From: an uncultured Gammaproteobacteria bacterium
GTDB taxonomy: Bacteria; Patescibacteriota; Microgenomatia; UBA1406; GWC2-37-13
Assembly (NCBI GenBank): GCA_964490915.1
Contig: CAZBEJ010000002.1
Coordinates: 1-40,830 of the forward strand
Reading direction: 5' to 3'
Length of the DNA: 40,830 nt
Of the stretch, positions 9,078 to 18,231 are shown piece by piece. The position numbers were made by a program, and so were the translations under genes. A model generated the notes under the pieces. It did not search any database, was not told the DNA's origin, and was given only the letters and a program-made list of their open reading frames with translations. The number at the start of each line of letters is the position of its first letter. Position 1 is the stretch's first letter.

Positions 9078-9392
9078 TCACTCGAGGTTCTCATCTCCCA
9101 GGATTTCTTCAGCAATCTTAGTGCACGTATTCATGCCTAAAGTACCGTCTATAAGCATTTGCTTCTTTGCTTTTGACCAACCCTTTAATTGTTTCTCTCT
9201 TCTTGCGGCTTGATATTTATCCTTATAACATTCACAGTAAACTAACTTAATTTGGTTAAACCGTAAAGTAAATAAAGAATTTTTATCGCGATGATTTCTG
9301 ATTCTCTGTACTAGATTATTAGTTATTCCAGTGTAATATATTTTTCTATCGCAAAGAAGCAAATAAACATACCATTTCTCAGAATTCTCCAT
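9078..9392 (-). CDS. GIY-YIG nuclease-family protein (small stand-alone, UPF0213/YhbQ-like)
   Basis: 104 aa from the internal ATG at 9392. Sequence: WYVYLLLCDRKIYYTGITNNLVQRIRNHR ... LVYCECYKDKYQAARREKQLKGWSKAKKQMLI (GIY...YIG, Arg, Glu motifs). The 142-aa track ORF was shortened because its N-terminal 38 codons are antisense to the tRNA. Confidence 0.85.
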   Translation of the reverse strand: MENSEKWYVYLLLCDRKIYYTGITNNLVQRIRNHRDKNSLFTLRFNQIKLVYCECYKDKYQAARREKQLKGWSKAKKQMLIDGTLGMNTCTKIAEEILGDENLE

Positions 9393-9427
9393 AACATTTT
9401 CTTGAGCTTGCACTGAGCTTGCCGAAG

Positions 9428-9445
9428 TGTCCAGAGGGGAGGATT
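9428..9445. repeat. 18-bp direct repeat copy B (tgtccagaggggaggatt), within and abutting the tRNA-Tyr 3' end
   Basis: Identical to 9036-9053. Confidence 0.85.
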
Positions 9446-9512
9446 CGAACCTCCGTAGGGTTACCCCGCTAGATTTACAGTCTAGTGCGATTGGCCGCTC
9501 TGCCACCTCTGG
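9430..9512 (-). tRNA. tRNA-Tyr (anticodon GUA), class II with long variable arm, no encoded CCA
   Basis: The reverse complement reads CCAGAGG-UG-GCAGAGCGGCCAAUCGC-A-CUAGA-CUGUAAA-UCUAG-CGGGGUAACCCUACG-GAGG-UUCGAAU-CCUC-CCUCUGG-A. It has a perfect 7-bp acceptor stem, 5-bp anticodon stem and 4-bp T stem. The D-loop AGCGGCCAA resembles bacterial tRNA-Tyr. The discriminator A is followed by CAC, not CCA. Confidence 0.92.
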
Positions 9513-9667: not shown

Positions 9668-10126
9668 ATGTGGTTTGTACACCCCGTATATGCAACCTGT
9701 CCGGCCTGCGTAGTCACCATTGGCGGTGGGCTGCTGATTGCCAAAAAACTCGGTATGGACGATCTTTTGGTTTCCATCTGGCTTTCAGGTTTTAACACCG
9801 CGTTCGCGTTTTTGATCGTATCGGGAGCAAAGAGCAGAAAAATTTTTTATTCCGTCTTGTTATCGCTGATTTTTCTGGTTTTGAACTTGTTGTATCTTTT
9901 TTTCTCCGGCCAGCTGTTTCATGCCGGAAATACGTTGTGGGGAATTGACAAGATTATTTTGGGAACGGTTGTCGGATTCATCGGATTTTTGTTTTCAGTG
10001 TATCTCGACAGACTGGTACGAAAAACCAATAAGGGAAAAGTTCTATTCCGCTATCAAAAAGTCCTGATACCGGTGTTCTTGCTTTTTATCATCACTTTGT
10101 TGTTTAATATAGGTATAGGGCATTAA
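9668..10126 (+). CDS. Small polytopic membrane protein of unknown function with a CPAC motif at the first TM helix
   Basis: 152-aa ORF with about 4 hydrophobic helices. The N-terminus VYATCPACVVTIGGGLLIA has a Cys-Pro-Ala-Cys pair. No family recognised. Confidence 0.6.
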   Translation: MWFVHPVYATCPACVVTIGGGLLIAKKLGMDDLLVSIWLSGFNTAFAFLIVSGAKSRKIFYSVLLSLIFLVLNLLYLFFSGQLFHAGNTLWGIDKIILGTVVGFIGFLFSVYLDRLVRKTNKGKVLFRYQKVLIPVFLLFIITLLFNIGIGH

Positions 10127-10154
10127 AATTTCTTTATCGGCCGTTAATGAGTCT

Positions 10155-10283
10155 ATGGACAATAAGGATGCAGTAACACAGGGGAAAAAAAATTCACGGG
10201 AAGATGCGGACGATCAATCGGACGACATATTCGGCGTGATAAATAAATTCATTAAAAAAATTTTAAAATGCTGCGGAAATTAA
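10155..10283 (+). CDS. Possible 42-aa small ORF (acidic N-terminus, amphipathic helix, C-terminal CCGN)
   Basis: Reads MDNKDAVTQGKKNSREDADDQSDDIFGVINKFIKKILKCCGN and ends 4 nt before the HypC-like ORF. No clear Shine-Dalgarno sequence. Absent from the ORF track because it is under 60 aa. Confidence 0.25.
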   Translation: MDNKDAVTQGKKNSREDADDQSDDIFGVINKFIKKILKCCGN

Positions 10284-10287
10284 TCCT

Positions 10288-10461
10288 ATGTGTTTTGTAA
10301 AGCCGATTCGGGTCAAAAAAGTTTTTGATAATTACGTCTTGTTGGAAAACGGAATCAAGGCGTATTACGAAAAAAAGGAGGGGAAATTAAAACGGAACGA
10401 TCTGGTTTTGGTATACGGAAATGTTGTTATAAATAAAATTGTTGATTATGCCCAAATCTGA
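10288..10461 (+). CDS. HypC/HupF-like hydrogenase maturation chaperone (short, 57 aa), unannotated small ORF
   Basis: Reads MCFVKPIRVKKVFDNYVLLENGIKAYYEKKEGKLKRNDLVLVYGNVVINKIVDYAQI. It has the HypC hallmark Met-Cys2 ... Pro6 (MCxxxP) and a C-terminal NDLVLVYGNVVI matching the GDYVLVHVGFAI block. It lies in the hydrogenase locus and overlaps the next gene by 14 nt. Confidence 0.6.
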   Translation: MCFVKPIRVKKVFDNYVLLENGIKAYYEKKEGKLKRNDLVLVYGNVVINKIVDYAQI

Positions 10462-11350
10462 CGGATTAAAAAAAGGATTGCTGTTTGCGTTTATTACCGC
10501 GGTTATCTCCGGATTCGCCATTTTTTACTCGAAAATTTCAGTCGCAAAAATTGACCCGTTGGTTTTGACAACGTGGAGAAATGCATTCGTGGGAGTTGTT
10601 TTCTTGCTCGGAATGGTATCATTCGGAAAATTGAAACAACTGAAAACGCTGCAGAAAAAGGATGTGATTATATTGTTGCTCATCGGCATAATCGGCGGCG
10701 GAGTTCCGTTTTACCTGTTTTTTACCGGGCTTCAGTTTATCGGCGCCCAGTCGGCAAACATTATTCATAAGTCCCTTTTTGTCTGGGTGTCGATCCTTGC
10801 GGTTGCGGTACTGGGAGAGCGTATCTCGTTCAAAACCATAGTCGCATACAGCCTGGTGTTTGCGGGAACGTTTTTCTTTGCACCCGTTAACCTTGTTTGG
10901 AATCAGGGAACGGCCATGGTGTTGGGAGCTACGCTTCTGTGGACCGTTGAAACGATTCTTTCAAAAAAAATTCTTGTACGTATCTCGTCGGAACTGGTCG
11001 GTTTTTCAAGAATGTTTGTCGGAGCATTGTTCTTGCTTGCAATGACCGCGGTTTCCGGTAAAGGAGCGGTGCTTTTTCACCTGAGTAATTCACAACTGCT
11101 AACTGTCGTCGTCGGCGGGTCGATCTTATGCGGGTATGTGTTTTTCTGGTATAGGGCGTTGAAACTGGCACCTGCCAATCTGGTAACGTTGGTTCTGAGT
11201 TTTTCCGTTGTCGTCGGATTCGTATTGAACGGTTCATTTGCCGGAGTAATTCTGAGCCGATCTGATGTACTATCGTCAGTATATATTGCCTGCGGAGTCG
11301 GGTTGGTATACCTCGCATACACTTTCCCCAAATTGCTCAGGCAATCGTGA
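10448..11350 (+). CDS. EamA/DMT-superfamily transporter (10 TM)
   Basis: About 300-aa ORF, started at the ATG at 10448 in frame with the track ORF at 10439. Shows two-fold repeated 5-TM architecture with EamA-like segments. Substrate unknown. Confidence 0.8.
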   Translation: MPKSDGLKKGLLFAFITAVISGFAIFYSKISVAKIDPLVLTTWRNAFVGVVFLLGMVSFGKLKQLKTLQKKDVIILLLIGIIGGGVPFYLFFTGLQFIGAQSANIIHKSLFVWVSILAVAVLGERISFKTIVAYSLVFAGTFFFAPVNLVWNQGTAMVLGATLLWTVETILSKKILVRISSELVGFSRMFVGALFLLAMTAVSGKGAVLFHLSNSQLLTVVVGGSILCGYVFFWYRALKLAPANLVTLVLSFSVVVGFVLNGSFAGVILSRSDVLSSVYIACGVGLVYLAYTFPKLLRQS

Positions 11351-11353
11351 TGT

Positions 11354-12100
11354 ATGGATTACAAAGGATTACTGCTGTGCGCGAGATATTCATCGGCGCC
11401 CAATTTCTACGGATATTGTGGACCTAATGAAAATGAAACGCTTGTCGGCAACCTGGCAGCAAAAGACCGGTATCGGGAGATCGCTTCCATACTTTCTGAG
11501 TTCGAAACATTGTATTTGTACCTCCGGTTGATTTCCTATGAAAACAGGGTTCCGGACCCGTTTGACCAGAAGGTTGTGGAAGCATACTGGATTGGAAACA
11601 AATTACTGAACAATGTTCAGAATGTGGATTATGGTGCGTTGCTGGAGGAACGGTTTGCAATCGAAAAAAAAATAGGGTTTAAAAAATATCTGCTGATGAG
11701 AAGGAAAATCCTCGGTAATAAACTGTATCCCCACCATTCGTTTCACGTATTCAATGTTTTCAAGCGTACAGGGCATGATCCGAGTTTTCACACGCTTGAG
11801 ACCATGAATGAATGCAGGGTAGGATGGGGAAAGATAAGAATGGAGATTGGAGGATGGAAAAGAGAGAATATCACTGTTGAAACACAACCATTAGTTATGG
11901 AAAAAGGCAAACTGAAATTGGGGAAACCGTTCATGAAAAATTTAAAAACAGACTACAGGGGGAAAAGTTTTCTCAAGGGTTTAAATCCGGGCGATTGGGT
12001 GAGTTTTCATTGGGGATTTGTTTGCGATAGACTAACGTTAGTTCAGGTACGCAATCTGCAATTTTATACCCAGAAGTCAATTGATTTCTACAATACATAA
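11354..12100 (+). CDS. Conserved hypothetical protein (resembles what I recall as DUF6390) with a C-terminal HypC-like domain
   Basis: 248-aa ORF. The N-terminus is CARYSSAPNFYGYCGPNEN. The C-terminal part has CRVGWGKIRMEI (compare HypC CLGIPGKIVEI) and GDWVSFHWGFVCDRL (compare HypC GDYVLVHVGFAI). Confidence 0.65.
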   Translation: MDYKGLLLCARYSSAPNFYGYCGPNENETLVGNLAAKDRYREIASILSEFETLYLYLRLISYENRVPDPFDQKVVEAYWIGNKLLNNVQNVDYGALLEERFAIEKKIGFKKYLLMRRKILGNKLYPHHSFHVFNVFKRTGHDPSFHTLETMNECRVGWGKIRMEIGGWKRENITVETQPLVMEKGKLKLGKPFMKNLKTDYRGKSFLKGLNPGDWVSFHWGFVCDRLTLVQVRNLQFYTQKSIDFYNT

Positions 12101-12108
12101 ATTAAATC

Positions 12109-12126
12109 ACTACAATTAATTGTAGT
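12109..12126. promoter_or_regulatory. Perfect 18-bp palindrome ACTACAATTAATTGTAGT between the DUF gene and the endopeptidase gene
   Basis: All 9 positions pair. It sits 8 nt after the stop at 12098-12100 and 14 nt before the ATG at 12141. Could be an operator site or a hairpin. Confidence 0.5.
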
Positions 12127-12140
12127 ACATGAAATAACGT

Positions 12141-12530
12141 ATGAGAAAAATCTATGTGTTTGGCAATCCGCTCATTCCACAAGATTCCTTTCCGTTTCAA
12201 TTCATTAATGAATTGAGTCGCGCTTTTCCAGATATAGATTTTCACATTACTGATCCGAATGAAAACTTTCCGCCAACGAGTGAAAAAAACCTGGTGATTC
12301 TGGATACGGTGAAAGGAATAAAAAAACCGATGCTATTTGATTTGGATGATTTCGAATCGAAAGGAGCCACGCCAATATCACCCCATGACTACGATCTGTT
12401 ATTTCATCTGCTGTTGCTTAGGAAGCTGAAAAAAATCAATACGGTCAAATTGATTGGTATACCTCAAAATAGTCGGACAGCGTTTACGTCTATTCAATCC
12501 ATGATCAGAAAGGCGCTGGCATCGTACTGA
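12141..12530 (+). CDS. Hydrogenase maturation endopeptidase (HycI/HoxW/HybD-like, divergent and short)
   Basis: 129-aa ORF. VFGNPLIPQDSFPF matches the GNxLxxDDGxG block. LVILDTV matches the xxDA metal-ligand block. SPHDYDL matches the His ligand block. It is convergent with the large subunit, which carries a cleavable tail. Confidence 0.6.
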   Translation: MRKIYVFGNPLIPQDSFPFQFINELSRAFPDIDFHITDPNENFPPTSEKNLVILDTVKGIKKPMLFDLDDFESKGATPISPHDYDLLFHLLLLRKLKKINTVKLIGIPQNSRTAFTSIQSMIRKALASY

Positions 12531-12538
12531 ATACTGTA

Positions 12539-13849
12539 TCATCGCCATTTCACCTTCAGAAAATGCGCCGCGCAGGACATACAGGGATCAAAAGCCCTGA
12601 TGAACTTTTCTATTTCATAGACGATCTGCTCCTTCGGCGTATCGACCGCAACCAATTTTTCGGTGAGTTCATAGATTCCTCTCTCCATTACAATCTGGTT
12701 CTGTCCGGTCGGTACCACAATGTCTCCTTTTTCAACAATGCCGTCAGCCTGCACCTGAAGTTTGTAGTACAGCGTGCCGCGGGGAGCTTCGATCAGGCCG
12801 ACGCTTTCGGTTCGGGTAAACATGGGTTTTTGCGGTGCCTCGTAGTCTATGGTTTTAAACGAATTTATGATATCGATTGACGAGTCAATCGCGTGAAGAA
12901 TTTCTATGGCCTGGGCAATAGTATTGAGGTAGAGATTATGAGAGGGGAACAGGTCGAGATATTTTTTTGCCGATTCCCTGGTTTTCGGATGAAGTTTTTT
13001 TTTATCGTTATTGATCCGGGCCAAAGCGCCCACCATGAGAAACTTGCCGTCGAATTTGAATCCCCGCGCCTGGGAGTAAGGAATGATGACCGCGTCCAAG
13101 TGGGTTCCATAGTCCTTTTCCTGGACGGTAACGCCGTCGCTGGTAATAAGGACTCCCTCGAGAAAGGAGTAGTCCTCTGAAGACAGTCCGCCGTATATCA
13201 CAGGCGTCCGCAGTGAAAAATCAGAACCGTCTTTGGCAAAAATTTCCAGAAGCTGCAAGATCTTCGGTCTGATTTCCATGAGGTTCGGCTTGAGATTCTT
13301 CAAGTCCTCGAGTCTGGGGAGTTTCAGAAAACCGCCGATAGTAGGCATGGGCGCATGGACCGATCTTCCGCCGACAATAACCGACAGTCGGTTGCCGACC
13401 TCTTTTACGCAAAACGTATCTTCAAGCATCTGGTGTTGAGTGGGATCTTTATCGTCAAAGTCCAGAATCGAGTTTTTGCCAAAAACGTCAGGTAAGGAAA
13501 AAATATATAAATGCAATGCATGGTCACGGATGATCAGACCGTAATATAACAGTTTACGCAATAACATAGTCTGTACAGATGGCTTTATGTTGCTTGCTTT
13601 TTCCACTGCCTCGATGCTTGCCAGAAGGTGCGCATTGGAACAGGTTCCGCAGATCCTGGCGACCAGTTGAGGGACTGCCGTTGCTGGTTTTCCCCTAATT
13701 GCCTGCGTGTAAAACCGTTTCCATTCGGATATGCTGAACTTTACGTTTTCGACATGTTTGTTGCGTACTCTCAGTTCAAGGGAAGCGGCTCCTTCGATTT
13801 TCGAAATTTCTTCCAGATTAATATCGAAGTCAATATCGATGTTATGCAT
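12539..13849 (-). CDS. [NiFe]-hydrogenase large (catalytic) subunit
   Basis: 436-aa ORF. The N-terminal Ni-Fe ligands are in RICGTCSNAH (C67, C70). The C-terminal ligands are in DPCMSCAAH (C423, C426, H429), followed by the 7-aa tail FLKVKWR. The size fits cytosolic group-3-type enzymes, but the subgroup was not determined. Confidence 0.9.
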   Translation of the reverse strand: MHNIDIDFDINLEEISKIEGAASLELRVRNKHVENVKFSISEWKRFYTQAIRGKPATAVPQLVARICGTCSNAHLLASIEAVEKASNIKPSVQTMLLRKLLYYGLIIRDHALHLYIFSLPDVFGKNSILDFDDKDPTQHQMLEDTFCVKEVGNRLSVIVGGRSVHAPMPTIGGFLKLPRLEDLKNLKPNLMEIRPKILQLLEIFAKDGSDFSLRTPVIYGGLSSEDYSFLEGVLITSDGVTVQEKDYGTHLDAVIIPYSQARGFKFDGKFLMVGALARINNDKKKLHPKTRESAKKYLDLFPSHNLYLNTIAQAIEILHAIDSSIDIINSFKTIDYEAPQKPMFTRTESVGLIEAPRGTLYYKLQVQADGIVEKGDIVVPTGQNQIVMERGIYELTEKLVAVDTPKEQIVYEIEKFIRAFDPCMSCAAHFLKVKWR

Positions 13850-13864
13850 GATAATTATTATCTA

Positions 13865-14344
13865 TTAACTCTTAGTTATTAAGAATTTATCCATAATATT
13901 GATAAACATTTCTTCGTTCATCGGACATCCCGGTACGACGGTATCCACCTTGACGACATCCGACAATTTCAGAACTTTGTCTTTATATTTGAACAGATCC
14001 AGGATCGGCTTGATTTCGTCCAGTTGGTCCCTGTTGAAAAAATTACGTTGGTTGGACGGGGATCCGACAATGGCACATGATCCGATTGCGACCAATACCT
14101 TTGTTTTCCCCCTGATCCGTATCAGTTTTTCCTCCTGTTTATCAGAACTTATGGATCCTTCTACGAATGCCACATCCATTTCCTGCAGTTCTTTTGTGTC
14201 ATCTTTCCGAAGCACCCGTGCATGCACAAACTCGATTTTCGCCAGCCATTCTTTATAATGAGTGTTCAATAATTCGGTAAACATGATAGTTGAATCTTCA
14301 CAGCAGGTAAAACTAAACCAGCCGACGCGTATTTTTTTATCCAT
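13865..14344 (-). CDS. [NiFe]-hydrogenase small subunit, minimal NuoB-fold with a single [4Fe-4S] site
   Basis: 159-aa ORF with exactly four Cys: C14 and C15 (FSFTCCEDS), C90 (GSCAIVG) and C140 (VPGCP). This is the Oxidored_q6/NuoB-like arrangement. It lies 15 nt upstream of the large-subunit gene on the same strand. Confidence 0.85.
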   Translation of the reverse strand: MDKKIRVGWFSFTCCEDSTIMFTELLNTHYKEWLAKIEFVHARVLRKDDTKELQEMDVAFVEGSISSDKQEEKLIRIRGKTKVLVAIGSCAIVGSPSNQRNFFNRDQLDEIKPILDLFKYKDKVLKLSDVVKVDTVVPGCPMNEEMFINIMDKFLITKS

Positions 14345-14437: not shown

Positions 14438-15484
14438 ATGACGCTGACCGAAATATCCTATAACAGCAGAAAATATGCGCCATTGGCAGTCCTTTTTTTT
14501 CTGGTAATCCTTATTTTCTTTTATGCATTTAAACTATTGTTTATTGCGCTCGAAGGCAACCAGACTCGACCGATTTATACGAATGCGGTTTTCGGAAAAA
14601 TCAAACAGCCGTTTGTAAAAGAGGCAACATCCAGCGCCGGCATGACATTTACGCTGGATACGGTTGAAGGTCAACCGGTCACCGCCTCGTCTGCAGCAAA
14701 AGTATATTTTCTTCCGCCTTCAGCAACGCATTTCGGCTACAACGAAAAAGTATATTTGATCGCAAAAGCATTTGGATTTAATACCGATCTGATTAAATAC
14801 CGCATGGTTGATATGGACGCGGTGTTTACCGATTCCAAGCAAAAACTTTCGGTCGATATCACCAACTTCAATTTTTCATACAACTATGATTTCGCGCTTG
14901 ACCCGGCCGTTTTCAACAGTATTCAAATTCCGTCAACCGACGTCATTCAAAACAAAGCAACGGACTTTCTCAAGACTGTCGGCCGCTATCCGGACGAGCT
15001 TGCGCAGGGAAAAATAAATATTTCCTATCTTATTCTGAATCCCACCGACCGTAGCGTAACCGTCACCGACAGGCCACAGGACGCCAATGCGGTCGAGGTC
15101 GATTTTTACCGGCCTGATATTGACGGTTTCCCCATGGTTTCACCCGGGTTTCCGTCCAGTCAAAATTACGTTATCATGGCAATATACAATACCAACATAA
15201 AGGTGTTAAGAGCGCAGATCCAGTTCTTTGAAAAATCAGATTCTCAGGTTGGTGTCTATCCGTTGAAAACAGGCGCTGTTGCATGGAAAGAACTGCAGGA
15301 AGGTAACGGATATGTCATATCGAATCCTCAAAACAATATGAATATTGATGTTAAGAATATGTTTACCGCATATCTTGACCCGAGTATTTACCAAAATTAT
15401 CTGGAACCGGTTTATGTATTTTTGGGAGGCAATAACTTCGCGGCATTTGTTCCTGCAGTCAGCGATTCATATCTCGCGCCGTGA
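14438..15484 (+). CDS. Hypothetical membrane-anchored, probably extracytoplasmic protein
   Basis: 348-aa ORF with one N-terminal TM helix (LAVLFFLVILIFFYAFKLLFIAL). No recognised motifs. Its 3' end overlaps the convergent dac-like gene by 26 nt. Confidence 0.6.
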   Translation: MTLTEISYNSRKYAPLAVLFFLVILIFFYAFKLLFIALEGNQTRPIYTNAVFGKIKQPFVKEATSSAGMTFTLDTVEGQPVTASSAAKVYFLPPSATHFGYNEKVYLIAKAFGFNTDLIKYRMVDMDAVFTDSKQKLSVDITNFNFSYNYDFALDPAVFNSIQIPSTDVIQNKATDFLKTVGRYPDELAQGKINISYLILNPTDRSVTVTDRPQDANAVEVDFYRPDIDGFPMVSPGFPSSQNYVIMAIYNTNIKVLRAQIQFFEKSDSQVGVYPLKTGAVAWKELQEGNGYVISNPQNNMNIDVKNMFTAYLDPSIYQNYLEPVYVFLGGNNFAAFVPAVSDSYLAP

Positions 15485-16379
15485 TATAGTTTATGTTTGA
15501 ATCAATCCAGTTGACCACTGCCTTTGTATCTGAGAACCGATCCTGGCTTTTCAGGATAACGATAATATACTGTCGGCCCTGATGTTTATAGAAACTAACC
15601 AGATTCTCGCCGGCGTTTTCCGTGTATCCTGTTTTCAATCCGCCGATTCCCTGGATTTCGCCAAGGAGCTGGTTGACGTTGGTTAACGTATGGAAGATCT
15701 TAAAGTCGACATCTGAGATCGTGATTTCTTTTATAGATACGATCCTGCTCAAATACTTGTTCTGTAGCAGGGCGCGAGCTGCCAGAGAGAGGTCAAAAGG
15801 TGTTACCAACTGTGACCTGTTGTCAAGACCGGCCGGATTAGTGAAATGCGAATCTTTCATATGGAGCTCTTGGGCTTTTTTATTCATCAATACGATGAAT
15901 TTATCGTAACCATACGCGTCGGCAAGAGCGTATGCCGCGTCGTTCCCCGAATAGATCAGCATTCCGTAAAATAGATTTTCAACAGTGATACGTTCACCGG
16001 GAACAAGGCCCATTACCTGACCTTCATTCATGACGCGGTGGATAGTAATAACCTGATCAGGTTTAAATATGTCATATGCCACCAGTGCGGTTATGATTTT
16101 GGCAGTCGAAGCAGGATAGAGGCGTTCGTGTTCATTTCGCATCATGATCGGCGTGAACGAAGGAAGATCGACAACATATACGCCTTCCGCCGTCACAGCA
16201 GGATAATATTGGCTAATCACGTGGGGAATGGGGTCAATTTTGATCGGGGTATTTTGCGGTGCTTTGACACTAAACATCTGTCGGTTATACGCGAAAATAT
16301 GGAAATAGTACGAATCGCCCGGATAAAAAAGAAAAAGTAAGGTAAAAAAACTGAATAATAGAATGAATTTCAGGCGCAT
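15459..16379 (-). CDS. D-alanyl-D-alanine carboxypeptidase (serine-type, PBP5/S11-like)
   Basis: 306-aa ORF with an N-terminal signal/anchor. Has SxxK (ASTAKIIT), SxN (YSGNDAA) and KTG (LKTGYT) motifs in the right order and spacing. Confidence 0.85.
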   Translation of the reverse strand: MRLKFILLFSFFTLLFLFYPGDSYYFHIFAYNRQMFSVKAPQNTPIKIDPIPHVISQYYPAVTAEGVYVVDLPSFTPIMMRNEHERLYPASTAKIITALVAYDIFKPDQVITIHRVMNEGQVMGLVPGERITVENLFYGMLIYSGNDAAYALADAYGYDKFIVLMNKKAQELHMKDSHFTNPAGLDNRSQLVTPFDLSLAARALLQNKYLSRIVSIKEITISDVDFKIFHTLTNVNQLLGEIQGIGGLKTGYTENAGENLVSFYKHQGRQYIIVILKSQDRFSDTKAVVNWIDSNINYITARDMNR

Positions 16380-16392
16380 ATAAAATAATGAA

Positions 16393-18231
16393 TTACGTAA
16401 AGTCTCCCACAGTCGGGTGAGTAATTGTTTTGAAATCTTCCGCCTTCATTTCGATTGATTTGGTGTGGCTGCCGGCATTAAAGTCGATGATTTGATTTTC
16501 GAATAACGCATGGTCGACATAGAGGGGAATAGAAAAAAGATTGCCGAAAGGCGGAACAGCGCCGATTTCAACATGGCTGACAGTTTTCACTTCTTCGGGT
16601 TTTGCCATTCTCAGATCCTTGACTTTATAGAGCATCTTGAATTTTTTCGTGTCGACTTTCCGGTCGGCAGGCACCACGATCATGACCGGTTTTTTGTCCG
16701 CATACATGATAAGAGCTTTTGCTCCGCGTTTTAAATCTGTGCCGCGGACTTTTGCAGCTTGCTCGGAAGTAAAAACTGGTTCATGTTCGTGGAGCGTATA
16801 TTCCTTTTTTTTGTTTTTTAGGAGTTTGACTATGGATTCGAACACATTCATATTGTATTTTTTTTCCGTAATTGAGATTCCCAGTTCCTGCAGCTGTTCT
16901 TCGCGTGCTTCGGACGGTGCATCCATGACCGCTGTTCTTCCTCCGGATGTGACAGGAAACGCGATAACTTCTCGCAAGTTTGATTCTCCGGTTAGACAGG
17001 TAATCAAACGGTCTATACCCGGCGCTATGCCGCCGTGCGGAGGCGCGCCATAGGAAAACGCCTCGATCATATGGCCGAACTCGGCGTCGATCCTCTGTTT
17101 TTCATACCCCATGATTTCGAAAACGCTTCTGAGCATTTCTGGCGTATGGGATCTGATGCTTCCTCCGCCGACTTCATAGCCGTTGCAGACCAGATCGTAT
17201 TGCGACGTAAGAATCTTTTCGATATTCGTTTTATTCAGCAGATCCTTCTCGTATTCGGGCAGCGGAGCGGAAAACGGGTTATGGGTAAAAGTCCATTTTC
17301 CTTCATATGTCTGTTCGAAAAACGGGAAATCAATAACCCAGGCAAATGCCTGGACATTGTCTTTTTTTTCCTGGTCGGTGCGCAGGTCGAACTTGTCTGC
17401 GCCGAACTTTTCCTTTGCTTCCTTATACGTAAAAACAGGAAATGGTTTTTTTTGCAGTTTCGCGCCGAGTTTCTCGAACGTAACTATTATCATTTCCTCG
17501 GTCAATTTCATGACATCCTTGCGGGTGACGAAGCTCATTTCGAGGTCGATCTGTGAAAACTCGCCGTATGCGCGGTCAGCGCGCGGGTCCTCATCCCTGA
17601 AACAGCGGGCGATCTGGAAATACCGTTCGAGTCCGGCAACCATGAGAAGTTGTTTATACTGTTGCGGCGACTGGGGGAGGGCGTAGAATTTTCCTTTTTG
17701 TAGTCGTGAAGGAACCAGGAAATCTCGTGCCCCTTCCGGTGTTGTTTTGGACAGAATAGGTGTTTCGATTTCGATAAACCGGTTTGAAAACAAAAATTCC
17801 CTAACAAGCTGGACGAATTTCGATTTGATGATAAGATTATTGGTCAGGCGCGGTCTTCGTAAATCAAGATACCGGTATTTCTGGCGGACTTCCTCATCAA
17901 CATTGTATCCGGTTCCTGACACAGGAAGGGGTAGGGCATTAGCTTTTCCCAAAACTTTCAGTTTTTTTGCAGCCACCTCAATACTGCCGGTCTTAAGTTT
18001 AGGATTTACCAAGTTTTCAGGCCGCTTATTGATTGTACCTTTAATCCATACGACATCTTCAGAAGATAATTCCTTAAAGCGTTCATCGCCAACAACCTGG
18101 ACAATGCCGCTTCGGTCACGAAGATCAATGAACACGATTTTCTTGTGGTCCCGTTTCGAATCTACCCAACCGTAAAGCTCCACTTCCTGACCGACTTTAT
18201 CAACTGTTTCGCTGATAAAAAGAGTTTTCAT
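16393..18231 (-). CDS. aspS: Aspartate--tRNA ligase, bacterial type without the GAD insertion, fused to a C-terminal YbaK/ProX-like aminoacyl-tRNA deacylase domain
   Basis: 612-aa ORF with an N-terminal OB anticodon-binding domain. Motif 2 is FRDEDPRADR..EFSQIDLEMSF, with HNPFSAP and GGGSIRSH, and motif 3 is PPHGGIAPGIDRL. Residues 457-612 carry the tRNA_edit/YbaK pattern (GAKALIMYADKKPVMIVVPADRKVDTKKFK ... GAVPPFG ... DFNAGSH). Confidence 0.9.
   Translation of the reverse strand: MKTLFISETVDKVGQEVELYGWVDSKRDHKKIVFIDLRDRSGIVQVVGDERFKELSSEDVVWIKGTINKRPENLVNPKLKTGSIEVAAKKLKVLGKANALPLPVSGTGYNVDEEVRQKYRYLDLRRPRLTNNLIIKSKFVQLVREFLFSNRFIEIETPILSKTTPEGARDFLVPSRLQKGKFYALPQSPQQYKQLLMVAGLERYFQIARCFRDEDPRADRAYGEFSQIDLEMSFVTRKDVMKLTEEMIIVTFEKLGAKLQKKPFPVFTYKEAKEKFGADKFDLRTDQEKKDNVQAFAWVIDFPFFEQTYEGKWTFTHNPFSAPLPEYEKDLLNKTNIEKILTSQYDLVCNGYEVGGGSIRSHTPEMLRSVFEIMGYEKQRIDAEFGHMIEAFSYGAPPHGGIAPGIDRLITCLTGESNLREVIAFPVTSGGRTAVMDAPSEAREEQLQELGISITEKKYNMNVFESIVKLLKNKKKEYTLHEHEPVFTSEQAAKVRGTDLKRGAKALIMYADKKPVMIVVPADRKVDTKKFKMLYKVKDLRMAKPEEVKTVSHVEIGAVPPFGNLFSIPLYVDHALFENQIIDFNAGSHTKSIEMKAEDFKTITHPTVGDFT

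Follow-up and report, generated by a model that had tools for sequence, protein, structure and literature searches.

The stretch of DNA analysed here (contig CAZBEJ010000002.1 of assembly GCA_964490915.1, positions 1 to 40,830, in the following called the window) encodes, between positions 9,668 and 14,344, a small [NiFe]-hydrogenase together with a facing block of accessory genes. Comparison with related genomes reveals a conserved two-subunit [NiFe]-hydrogenase cluster that is found only in ultra-small bacteria belonging to the Candidate Phyla Radiation (CPR). The sequence features of the enzyme assign it to the CPR clade that Jaffe et al. named hyd2 (BMC Biol 2020, PMC7304191). We favour, with somewhat better than even confidence, the explanation that the cluster specifies a minimal, soluble, heterodimeric hyd2 hydrogenase, which is linked to ferredoxin, works in fermentation and is served by a dedicated accessory and maturation operon facing it. 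All eight open reading frames (ORFs) that an earlier sequence-only reading had named in this region were recovered at identical coordinates in a six-frame ORF list.

Relatives of the large subunit were collected by scanning one genome per GTDB species. Matches were obtained in 312 genomes, of which the best 80 loci were taken; the set of loci comprised 86 with ±10-kb flanks (1.35 Mb in total, only about 2% of each genome), and gene presence was counted in the 82 non-duplicate ones. Loci are referred to by L numbers where needed. ORFs were called in all loci, hidden Markov models (HMMs) were built from the window proteins and all neighbours were clustered. The 82 loci split into 35 of Microgenomates type and 47 more distant ones (50–55% identity; Parcubacteria, WWE3, Azambacteria and others). 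The nearest homologues of the large subunit, with 60–86% identity, belong to Candidatus Roizmanbacteria and other Patescibacteria. Genomes of the RIFCSP and GW2011 datasets are among the recovered loci, and Jaffe et al. reportedly drew on these two datasets as well. Many GTDB representative metagenome-assembled genomes with the cluster (L007, L009, L011, L013 and others) are titled 'uncultured Gammaproteobacteria' or 'Saccharibacteria', titles that look like mislabels when judged by gene content and neighbours.

The catalytic large subunit (436 aa, 12539..13849, minus strand) matches PF00374 with 104.4 bits against a cut-off of 25.8. As the sequence-only reading had described, it carries both cysteine-pair motifs, RICGTCSNAH and DPCMSCAAH, the latter followed after His429 by the seven-residue tail FLKVKWR. 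The first motif (L1) is identical in 82/82 relatives, the second (L2, DPCMSCAxH) and the tail FLK[VI]xW are kept in essentially all 82, and all four metal-binding cysteines, the EAPRG arginine and the HxxHLY motif are invariant. For a peptide that is discarded as a rule, such conservation of the tail is uncommon. Among NCBIfam models, the group-3b alpha subunits HydA (sulfhydrogenase) and ShyA score highest with 234 and 231 bits, followed by the next group at about 120 bits; both scores lie far under the respective equivalog cut-offs of 880 and 700. Best matches in the PDB are HyhL of Thermococcus kodakarensis (5yxy) and the alpha subunit of the Pyrococcus furiosus sulfhydrogenase I (SHI), then Mvh. 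By these scores the large subunit would be a distant relative of group 3b; the nesting inside a well-characterised subgroup that had been considered beforehand was not seen, as the 3b models score best and remain far below their equivalog cut-offs. The ratio of nonsynonymous to synonymous substitution rates (dN/dS) is 0.044 in comparison with L007.

The small subunit (159 aa, 13865..14344, minus strand) contains PF01058 (Oxidored_q6, E=5.5e-19) as its sole domain, with conserved cysteines at the tandem C14-C15, at C90 and at C140. It aligns with the first ~150 residues (about 3–152) of the delta subunit HydD of P. furiosus, and likewise with MvhG, and stops just past the GCP motif. Because the alignment ends at this point, after ~150 residues, the medial and distal clusters are missing, which confirms the earlier description of a 159-aa single-cluster subunit reduced to the proximal-cluster domain. 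This truncation is common to 81/81 relatives (family median 164 aa), and the CCED/C90/C140 pattern is kept in 75–81 of 81, with CCED present in 75/80. The tandem CC replaces the usual CxxC and aligns with the 'SCC' of Escherichia coli NuoB, not with the 'CNGC' of HycG; on this alignment we class the motif as NuoB-like. The dN/dS of the small subunit is ~0.04.

Both subunit genes face four plus-strand genes in an order that recurs in ~80 CPR species genomes and is almost always kept, namely small>large> <protease<DUF6390<EamA<hypC. Among the 82 loci we counted the small subunit in 81, the protease-like gene in 80, DUF6390 in ~74, EamA in ~67 and the HypC-like gene in at least 41, and the six-gene module spans Roizman-, Gottesman-, Chisholm-, WWE3-, Azam- and Kerfeldbacteria as well as Parcubacteria. 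Since the synteny of the plus-strand genes with the hydrogenase is kept across so many CPR lineages, the plus-strand block belongs to the hydrogenase; a loss of synteny in relatives, which the sequence-only reading had named as the finding that would speak against a connection, was not observed. L034 and L036 have the six genes all on one strand. In the usual arrangement the protease-like gene and the large-subunit gene run towards each other, with a gap of 8 bases in the window (12530–12539) and an overlap of ~20 bases in relatives (L001 11292–11311), so that there is no room for terminators. Promoter and terminator scans of the region gave counts at or below the shuffled expectation, and a search around the cluster for a nickel riboswitch or further RNA elements returned the tRNA-Tyr of the window as its only match.

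Against relatives, synonymous sites are saturated and dN is low (three comparisons). Five of the six core genes have an estimable dS, with dN/dS of 0.04–0.23 overall and of 0.07–0.23 for HypC, EamA and the protease-like gene, and are under purifying selection; for DUF6390, dS is saturated in 3/3 comparisons and dN/dS is not estimable. All genomic contexts opened for DUF6390 or HypC-like proteins turned out to be hyd2 clusters, except for one Komeilibacteria contig (L093). There, a HypC, an EamA transporter, a 253-aa protein without Pfam match and a 134-aa protein stand in the usual order (10001–12294), followed by type IV pilus genes and with no hydrogenase alongside. A heavy-metal P-type ATPase with HMA domain and CPC motif lies 3–9 kb from hyd2 in seven loci (L012, L037, L039, L048, L056, L068 and L085), which is too infrequent for it to be called linked. 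In the Roizmanbacteria locus L088, a nicotianamine-synthase-like gene (PF03059) and an Orn/Arg decarboxylase gene were found near the cluster (15125–16747), just beyond the gene for aspartyl-tRNA synthetase (AspRS); the former was considered as a link to a nickel chelate and dropped, as it occurs in no other locus.

The first of the core plus-strand genes encodes a 57-aa protein (10288..10461). Its window copy has no Pfam match, while 19/22 orthologues match HupF_HypC (PF01455, best E=1.2e-13), the orthologue profile thereby bearing out the HypC likeness proposed from the sequence. The family profile furthermore matches T. kodakarensis HypC (2z1c, E=7e-11), E. coli HypC as query matches three orthologues, and the M1-C2 start, with the Cys2 of HypC, is invariant in 22/22. 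By these profile matches we assign the 57-aa protein to the HypC family proper. The 3' end of its gene is overlapped by the gene of a 303-aa transporter of the EamA/DMT family with ten predicted transmembrane segments (10439..11350, plus strand), where PF00892 matches in two repeats (E=1.1e-32) and thus confirms the earlier annotation. The EamA gene in turn abuts that of DUF6390, and in L041 (563 aa) and L043 (559 aa) both are fused to encode a single polypeptide. L069 probably holds a third such fusion, cut by the contig end.

The DUF6390 protein itself (248 aa, 11354..12100, plus strand) matches PF19927 with 178 bits against a cut-off of 25 (E=2.9e-52). Its AlphaFold model, with a mean predicted local distance difference test score (pLDDT) of 81, shows a helical domain followed by an OB barrel and helix, corresponding to an all-alpha N-terminal domain (residues ~1–155) and a HypC-like OB-fold (~155–248). 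A Foldseek search of the PDB matched only the OB domain and found nothing for the helical N-terminal domain; the most specific match of the OB part was HypC (2z1c_B) with a target-normalised TM-score of 0.62 and a probability of 1.0. The model therefore agrees with the internal HypC-like domain that the sequence-only reading had suspected in this protein, and DUF6390, on the predicted structure, is best described as combining a helical domain of novel type with a HypC-like OB domain. The alignment reveals seven invariant residues, C9, C22 (in YCGP), H128, H131, C154, H219 and C224. By inspection against the HypC consensus, we take C154 (ECRVGWGKI) and H219 (SFHWGF) to sit at the positions of HypC Cys2 and His51. 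While a word-indexed search returned ~700 DUF6390 homologues, an HMM search of 1.84 billion representatives at E<=0.001 gave 1221 clusters (50% identity). The 150 top-ranking ones comprise proteins of DUF6390 length, fragments and a few longer fusions, with no clue to the N-terminal domain, and the searched full-text literature holds no paper mentioning 'DUF6390'.

The last gene of the block (129 aa, 12141..12530, plus strand) encodes a candidate endopeptidase of the HycI/HybD type. As to the short divergent endopeptidase postulated earlier, the ligand residues stand, since the alignment with E. coli HycI retains the GN..D, D and H metal-ligand columns and D15, D55 and H82 are invariant, but the HycI match (PF01750, E=1.6e-3) stays with 18.7 bits below the Pfam cut-off of 23. 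Within the family, 10/21 members match HycI (best E=2.4e-5) and none matches any other family. A single-sequence AlphaFold model with pLDDT 47 was unusable for fold comparison.

Pfam scans of all sizeable ORFs in the window detected no diaphorase, FeS/flavin protein, ferredoxin or membrane hydrogenase subunit, in agreement with the earlier statement that no partner or membrane subunits adjoin the hydrogenase. That the electron route is not encoded locally accordingly holds for the window, but not for the family, where 22/82 loci carry a reductase and 17 a ferredoxin. The reductase, a ~415-aa flavoprotein (Pyr_redox_2 + Rubredoxin_C; NorW-like, E down to 5e-26), is found in 22/47 of the distant loci, and a ~89-aa single-cluster ferredoxin (Fer4_15/Fer4_13, CIGAASC...CP) in 17/47, 16 of which carry the flavoprotein too. 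Relative to the small-subunit gene, that of the reductase is located upstream and on the same strand in 17/22 loci and downstream in the other five, and in most such loci the ferredoxin and reductase pair immediately precedes the small-subunit gene in the same orientation. This linkage is limited to Parcubacteria-type loci (L039, L043, L046–L048, L050, L051, L053, L057, L060, L061, L063, L070, L073–L077 and L083–L085). Reductase and local HypC are mutually exclusive, with 42 loci containing HypC only, 22 the reductase only and 18 neither.

Regarding cofactor maturation, Pfam scans bore out the earlier claim that no HypA, B, D, E or F is encoded in the 40.8-kb window. A search with the HypC profile returned 111 proteins, and the three contexts that were opened are hyd2 clusters or an orphan accessory block, with no canonical hyp operon among them.

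According to the explanation we favour, the large subunit, whose motifs show a canonical Ni-Fe site, would form or cleave H2 there, and electrons would cross the single [4Fe-4S] cluster of the small subunit, predicted from the sequence to be held by the NuoB-like tandem cysteines. From there, they would pass directly to a small soluble single-cluster ferredoxin, this being the simplest reading of a single exposed proximal cluster, with NAD(P)H or ferredoxin reduced by pyruvate:ferredoxin oxidoreductase as the ultimate partner. Parcubacteria-type relatives encode the ferredoxin and a putative rubredoxin-reductase-like NAD(P)H:ferredoxin oxidoreductase just before the small subunit; for the window, with its Roizmanbacteria-type lineage, the carrier would have to be encoded elsewhere. 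The enzyme likely disposes of fermentative reductant as H2, H2 evolution being the likelier direction because the CPR lifestyle is fermentative, and may also work in reverse. The facing block would most likely be the enzyme's own maturation module, in which HypC delivers the iron moiety and the HycI-like endopeptidase cuts the FLKVKWR tail once the metal is inserted. DUF6390 may act where the EamA transporter faces the cytoplasm; there it probably takes up the transported metal or cofactor precursor and passes it to the large subunit.

Several points weigh against this explanation. The position of HypC His51 is Tyr in the window protein and Tyr, Ala, Gln or Thr across the family. The protease assignment, as judged by sequence comparison, is weak: a profile search of the PDB with the protease-like family gave no match, and hhalign against E. 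coli HycI, HybD and HyaD yielded a probability of 12%. The EamA substrate and the role of DUF6390 are guesses. As neither the window nor the Microgenomates-type flanks encode a ferredoxin or reductase (0/35 loci within 10 kb), the electron carrier of the window's lineage is inferred by analogy. Finally, searches with E. coli queries found no HypA, B, D, E or F in the flanks of the 86 loci, which span about 2% of each genome, so that canonical cofactor synthesis is unproven.

This last point leads to the alternative that survives best, although we consider it unlikely: a non-canonical maturation or scavenging pathway in hyd2 genomes that lack HypD, E and F. Were these three truly absent, the EamA-DUF6390-HypC-protease set would have to replace them. 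The transporter and the Cys/His-rich DUF6390 could import a nickel chelate or a host-derived precursor, or assemble the cofactor, with HypC and the protease finishing the process; in another form, the iron site would be built on DUF6390 itself, a Cys/His-rich HypC-like domain tethered to the membrane. Such a pathway would fit the lack of HypA, B, D, E and F both in the window and in the 10-kb surroundings of hyd2 across 80 species genomes, and the HypC-profile search that retrieved hyd2-linked HypC only and no canonical hyp operon. It would also fit the seven invariant Cys/His residues and the HypC-like domain of DUF6390, its fusion to the transporter in some genomes, the seemingly hyd2-specific distribution of its family and the general dependence of CPR bacteria on hosts (PMC7304191). 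The inspected flanks, however, amount to only about 2% of every genome, and hyp genes frequently lie apart from the structural genes. Moreover, a HypC that retains Cys2 points to the presence somewhere of HypD, its obligate partner, and no relative that could hint at the chemistry of the DUF6390 N-terminal domain was detected. We also know of no precedent for an assembly of the Fe(CN)2CO unit that is independent of Hyp proteins.

That the enzyme is a hydrogenase-like protein that does not metabolise H2 and serves in sensing or some other redox function, in analogy to the Cys-less Ehr proteins of CPR bacteria, appears quite improbable. The missing local Hyp machinery and redox partner would be in line with such a role, and Jaffe et al. 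called the function uncertain (PMC7304191). The four metal-binding cysteines, the EAPRG arginine, the HxxHLY motif and the cleavable tail are nevertheless all invariant, HypC and protease-like genes co-occur with subunits evolving at a dN/dS of ~0.04, and relatives encode ferredoxin and reductase in the same operon.

Very improbable, too, is a conventional group-3b (sulf)hydrogenase whose beta and gamma subunits and hyp genes are encoded elsewhere in the genome. The closest characterised relatives of the large subunit are indeed 3b alpha subunits, and tetrameric 3b enzymes ('hyd1') do occur in CPR genomes (PMC7304191; PMC10811913). The small subunit, however, is devoid of the C-terminal domain with medial and distal clusters needed to wire a beta subunit in 81/81 relatives, no beta- or gamma-like family is found among the recurrent neighbours of the 82 loci, the partners, where encoded, are a ferredoxin and a NorW-like reductase, and the scores fall far under the 3b equivalog cut-offs. 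That the plus-strand genes are merely unrelated neighbours, a metabolite exporter with some unknown proteins, is the least credible alternative, as the usual transport of organic metabolites by EamA proteins and the Komeilibacteria HypC-EamA block without adjacent hydrogenase (L093) are opposed by a linkage held across deep CPR lineages while other neighbours vary, by the single co-directional operon in L034 and L036, by HypC domains in two block proteins and by the presence of DUF6390 beside hyd2 in every context inspected.

Two further ORFs precede the core block on the plus strand. The 42-aa ORF (10155..10283, no Pfam match), which the sequence-only reading had counted as a member of the block, is present but not a gene of its own; it is the C-terminal remnant of a larger protein of 176–196 aa with the C-terminus ...CC(K/R/G)x, the full-length gene of which is kept in 12 Roizmanbacteria-type loci (13 before duplicate removal) between hypC and the gene of a membrane protein. 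An intact 176-aa copy is encoded in L007 (13590–14120, minus strand), its last ~20 residues aligning with the 42-aa ORF. The membrane protein (152 aa, 9668..10126) features an N-terminal TCPxC and a weak DUF2070 match; it occurs in 13 loci, all of Microgenomates type, and is frameshifted in L007, the closest relative. Neither ORF counts as part of the core, probably so in the case of the 42-aa ORF; both are specific to Roizmanbacteria-type loci, and either one or the other has decayed in close relatives.

According to Pfam, the other 31 sizeable ORFs of the window are of housekeeping or fermentation type, including a 2-hydroxyacid dehydrogenase, ABC exporters, AspRS, IF-2, NusA, SecDF and DnaK. 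The sole RNA gene, tRNA-Tyr (9429–9512), overlaps the 5' end of an ORF with GIY-YIG nuclease domain (9078–9512, minus strand), the true start of which is probably an internal Met; small GIY-YIG genes adjoin the cluster in ~10 related loci, e.g. L089. The AspRS of the window (16393–18231, minus strand) has 612 aa and a C-terminal aminoacyl-tRNA editing domain of the YbaK/ProX type (PF04073, E=7e-31). In most relatives AspRS is 443–463 aa long and without editing domain, while L088 shares the fusion found in the window.

Should hyd2 be active, it would rank with the simplest [NiFe]-hydrogenases, having ~600 residues and one FeS cluster. With at least 312 species-level CPR genomes carrying it, hyd2 matters for the hydrogen cycle of groundwater and sediments. 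Through its helper genes one can ask which share of the Hyp machinery is truly needed and by what means organisms with genomes of ~1 Mb acquire nickel and the Fe(CN)2CO unit; non-canonical maturation, if true, would constitute a second route to an active [NiFe] site. The NuoB-like tandem cysteines in a group-3-like small subunit are furthermore relevant to the evolution of complex I from hydrogenases.

Compared to known accessory proteins, the 57-aa protein falls within the HypC/HybG/HupF family but is devoid of the His residue. The likeness of DUF6390 to HypC is confined to the OB domain; unlike in HypC, the Cys lies mid-chain behind a 150-residue helical domain, and the protein is coupled to a transporter. 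The 129-aa protein keeps the D/D/H columns of HycI/HybD, while being too divergent for the family thresholds. In contrast to canonical [NiFe] maturation, the hyd2 cluster shows no linkage to HypA, B, D, E or F.

Group-3b enzymes such as P. furiosus SHI and T. kodakarensis Hyh provide the best sequence matches of both subunits, and they share with the window enzyme the cytosolic location and a short C-terminal tail of the large subunit. They are, however, alpha-delta-beta-gamma tetramers with a ~260-aa three-cluster delta subunit and a flavin/NAD(P) module, whereas the window encodes a dimer with one cluster and has CC in place of CxxC as the first cysteine pair of the small subunit. The window enzyme hence does not qualify as a 3b member, as it reaches no equivalog score and has neither a three-cluster delta subunit of ~250–260 aa nor beta and gamma subunits, which are missing from the window and from the recurrent neighbours of the 82 loci. 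A proximal [4Fe-4S] cluster alone, as in the window, is also found in HoxY (group 3d), HycG/EchC (group 4) and NuoB (complex I); these dock onto large diaphorase or membrane modules, none of which is linked to hyd2. The tandem cysteines are shared with NuoB, yet the sequence of the small subunit is closer to group-3 small subunits.

The described system that matches is hyd2. Jaffe et al. divided the 3b-related enzymes of CPR bacteria into hyd1, which has beta and gamma subunits, and hyd2, which forms a long branch, consistently has a shortened small subunit averaging 164 aa and lies close to a hypC-like family; no beta or gamma subunits were detected for hyd2, some members were located near a PF07992 protein or an FeS protein, and the authors concluded that 'its function remains uncertain' (PMC7304191). 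Roizmanbacteria were the lineage with most matches, and the neighbour plots were limited to the same strand (PMC7304191). The window agrees in its CPR host, the 3b-related large subunit, the 159-aa small subunit, the hypC-like gene nearby and the missing beta and gamma subunits, and differs in nothing essential; because all of these features match, we regard it as a member of the described hyd2 kind. The sequence-only reading had not recognised the gene combination from described operons, a view that does not hold given this 2020 description. The families fam013 (PF07992) and fam390 (FeS) of that study correspond to the reductase and ferredoxin of our Parcubacteria-type loci. The protease-like protein, DUF6390, EamA, the EamA-DUF6390 fusions and the tandem-cysteine motif are not mentioned in the accessible parts of its text and supplements, and no other paper on hyd2 appeared in the searched full-text literature. 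New to the description of hyd2 are the identity of the 57-aa protein as a HypC proper, the predicted architecture of DUF6390, the NuoB-like tandem-cysteine motif and the linkage to ferredoxin and reductase genes.

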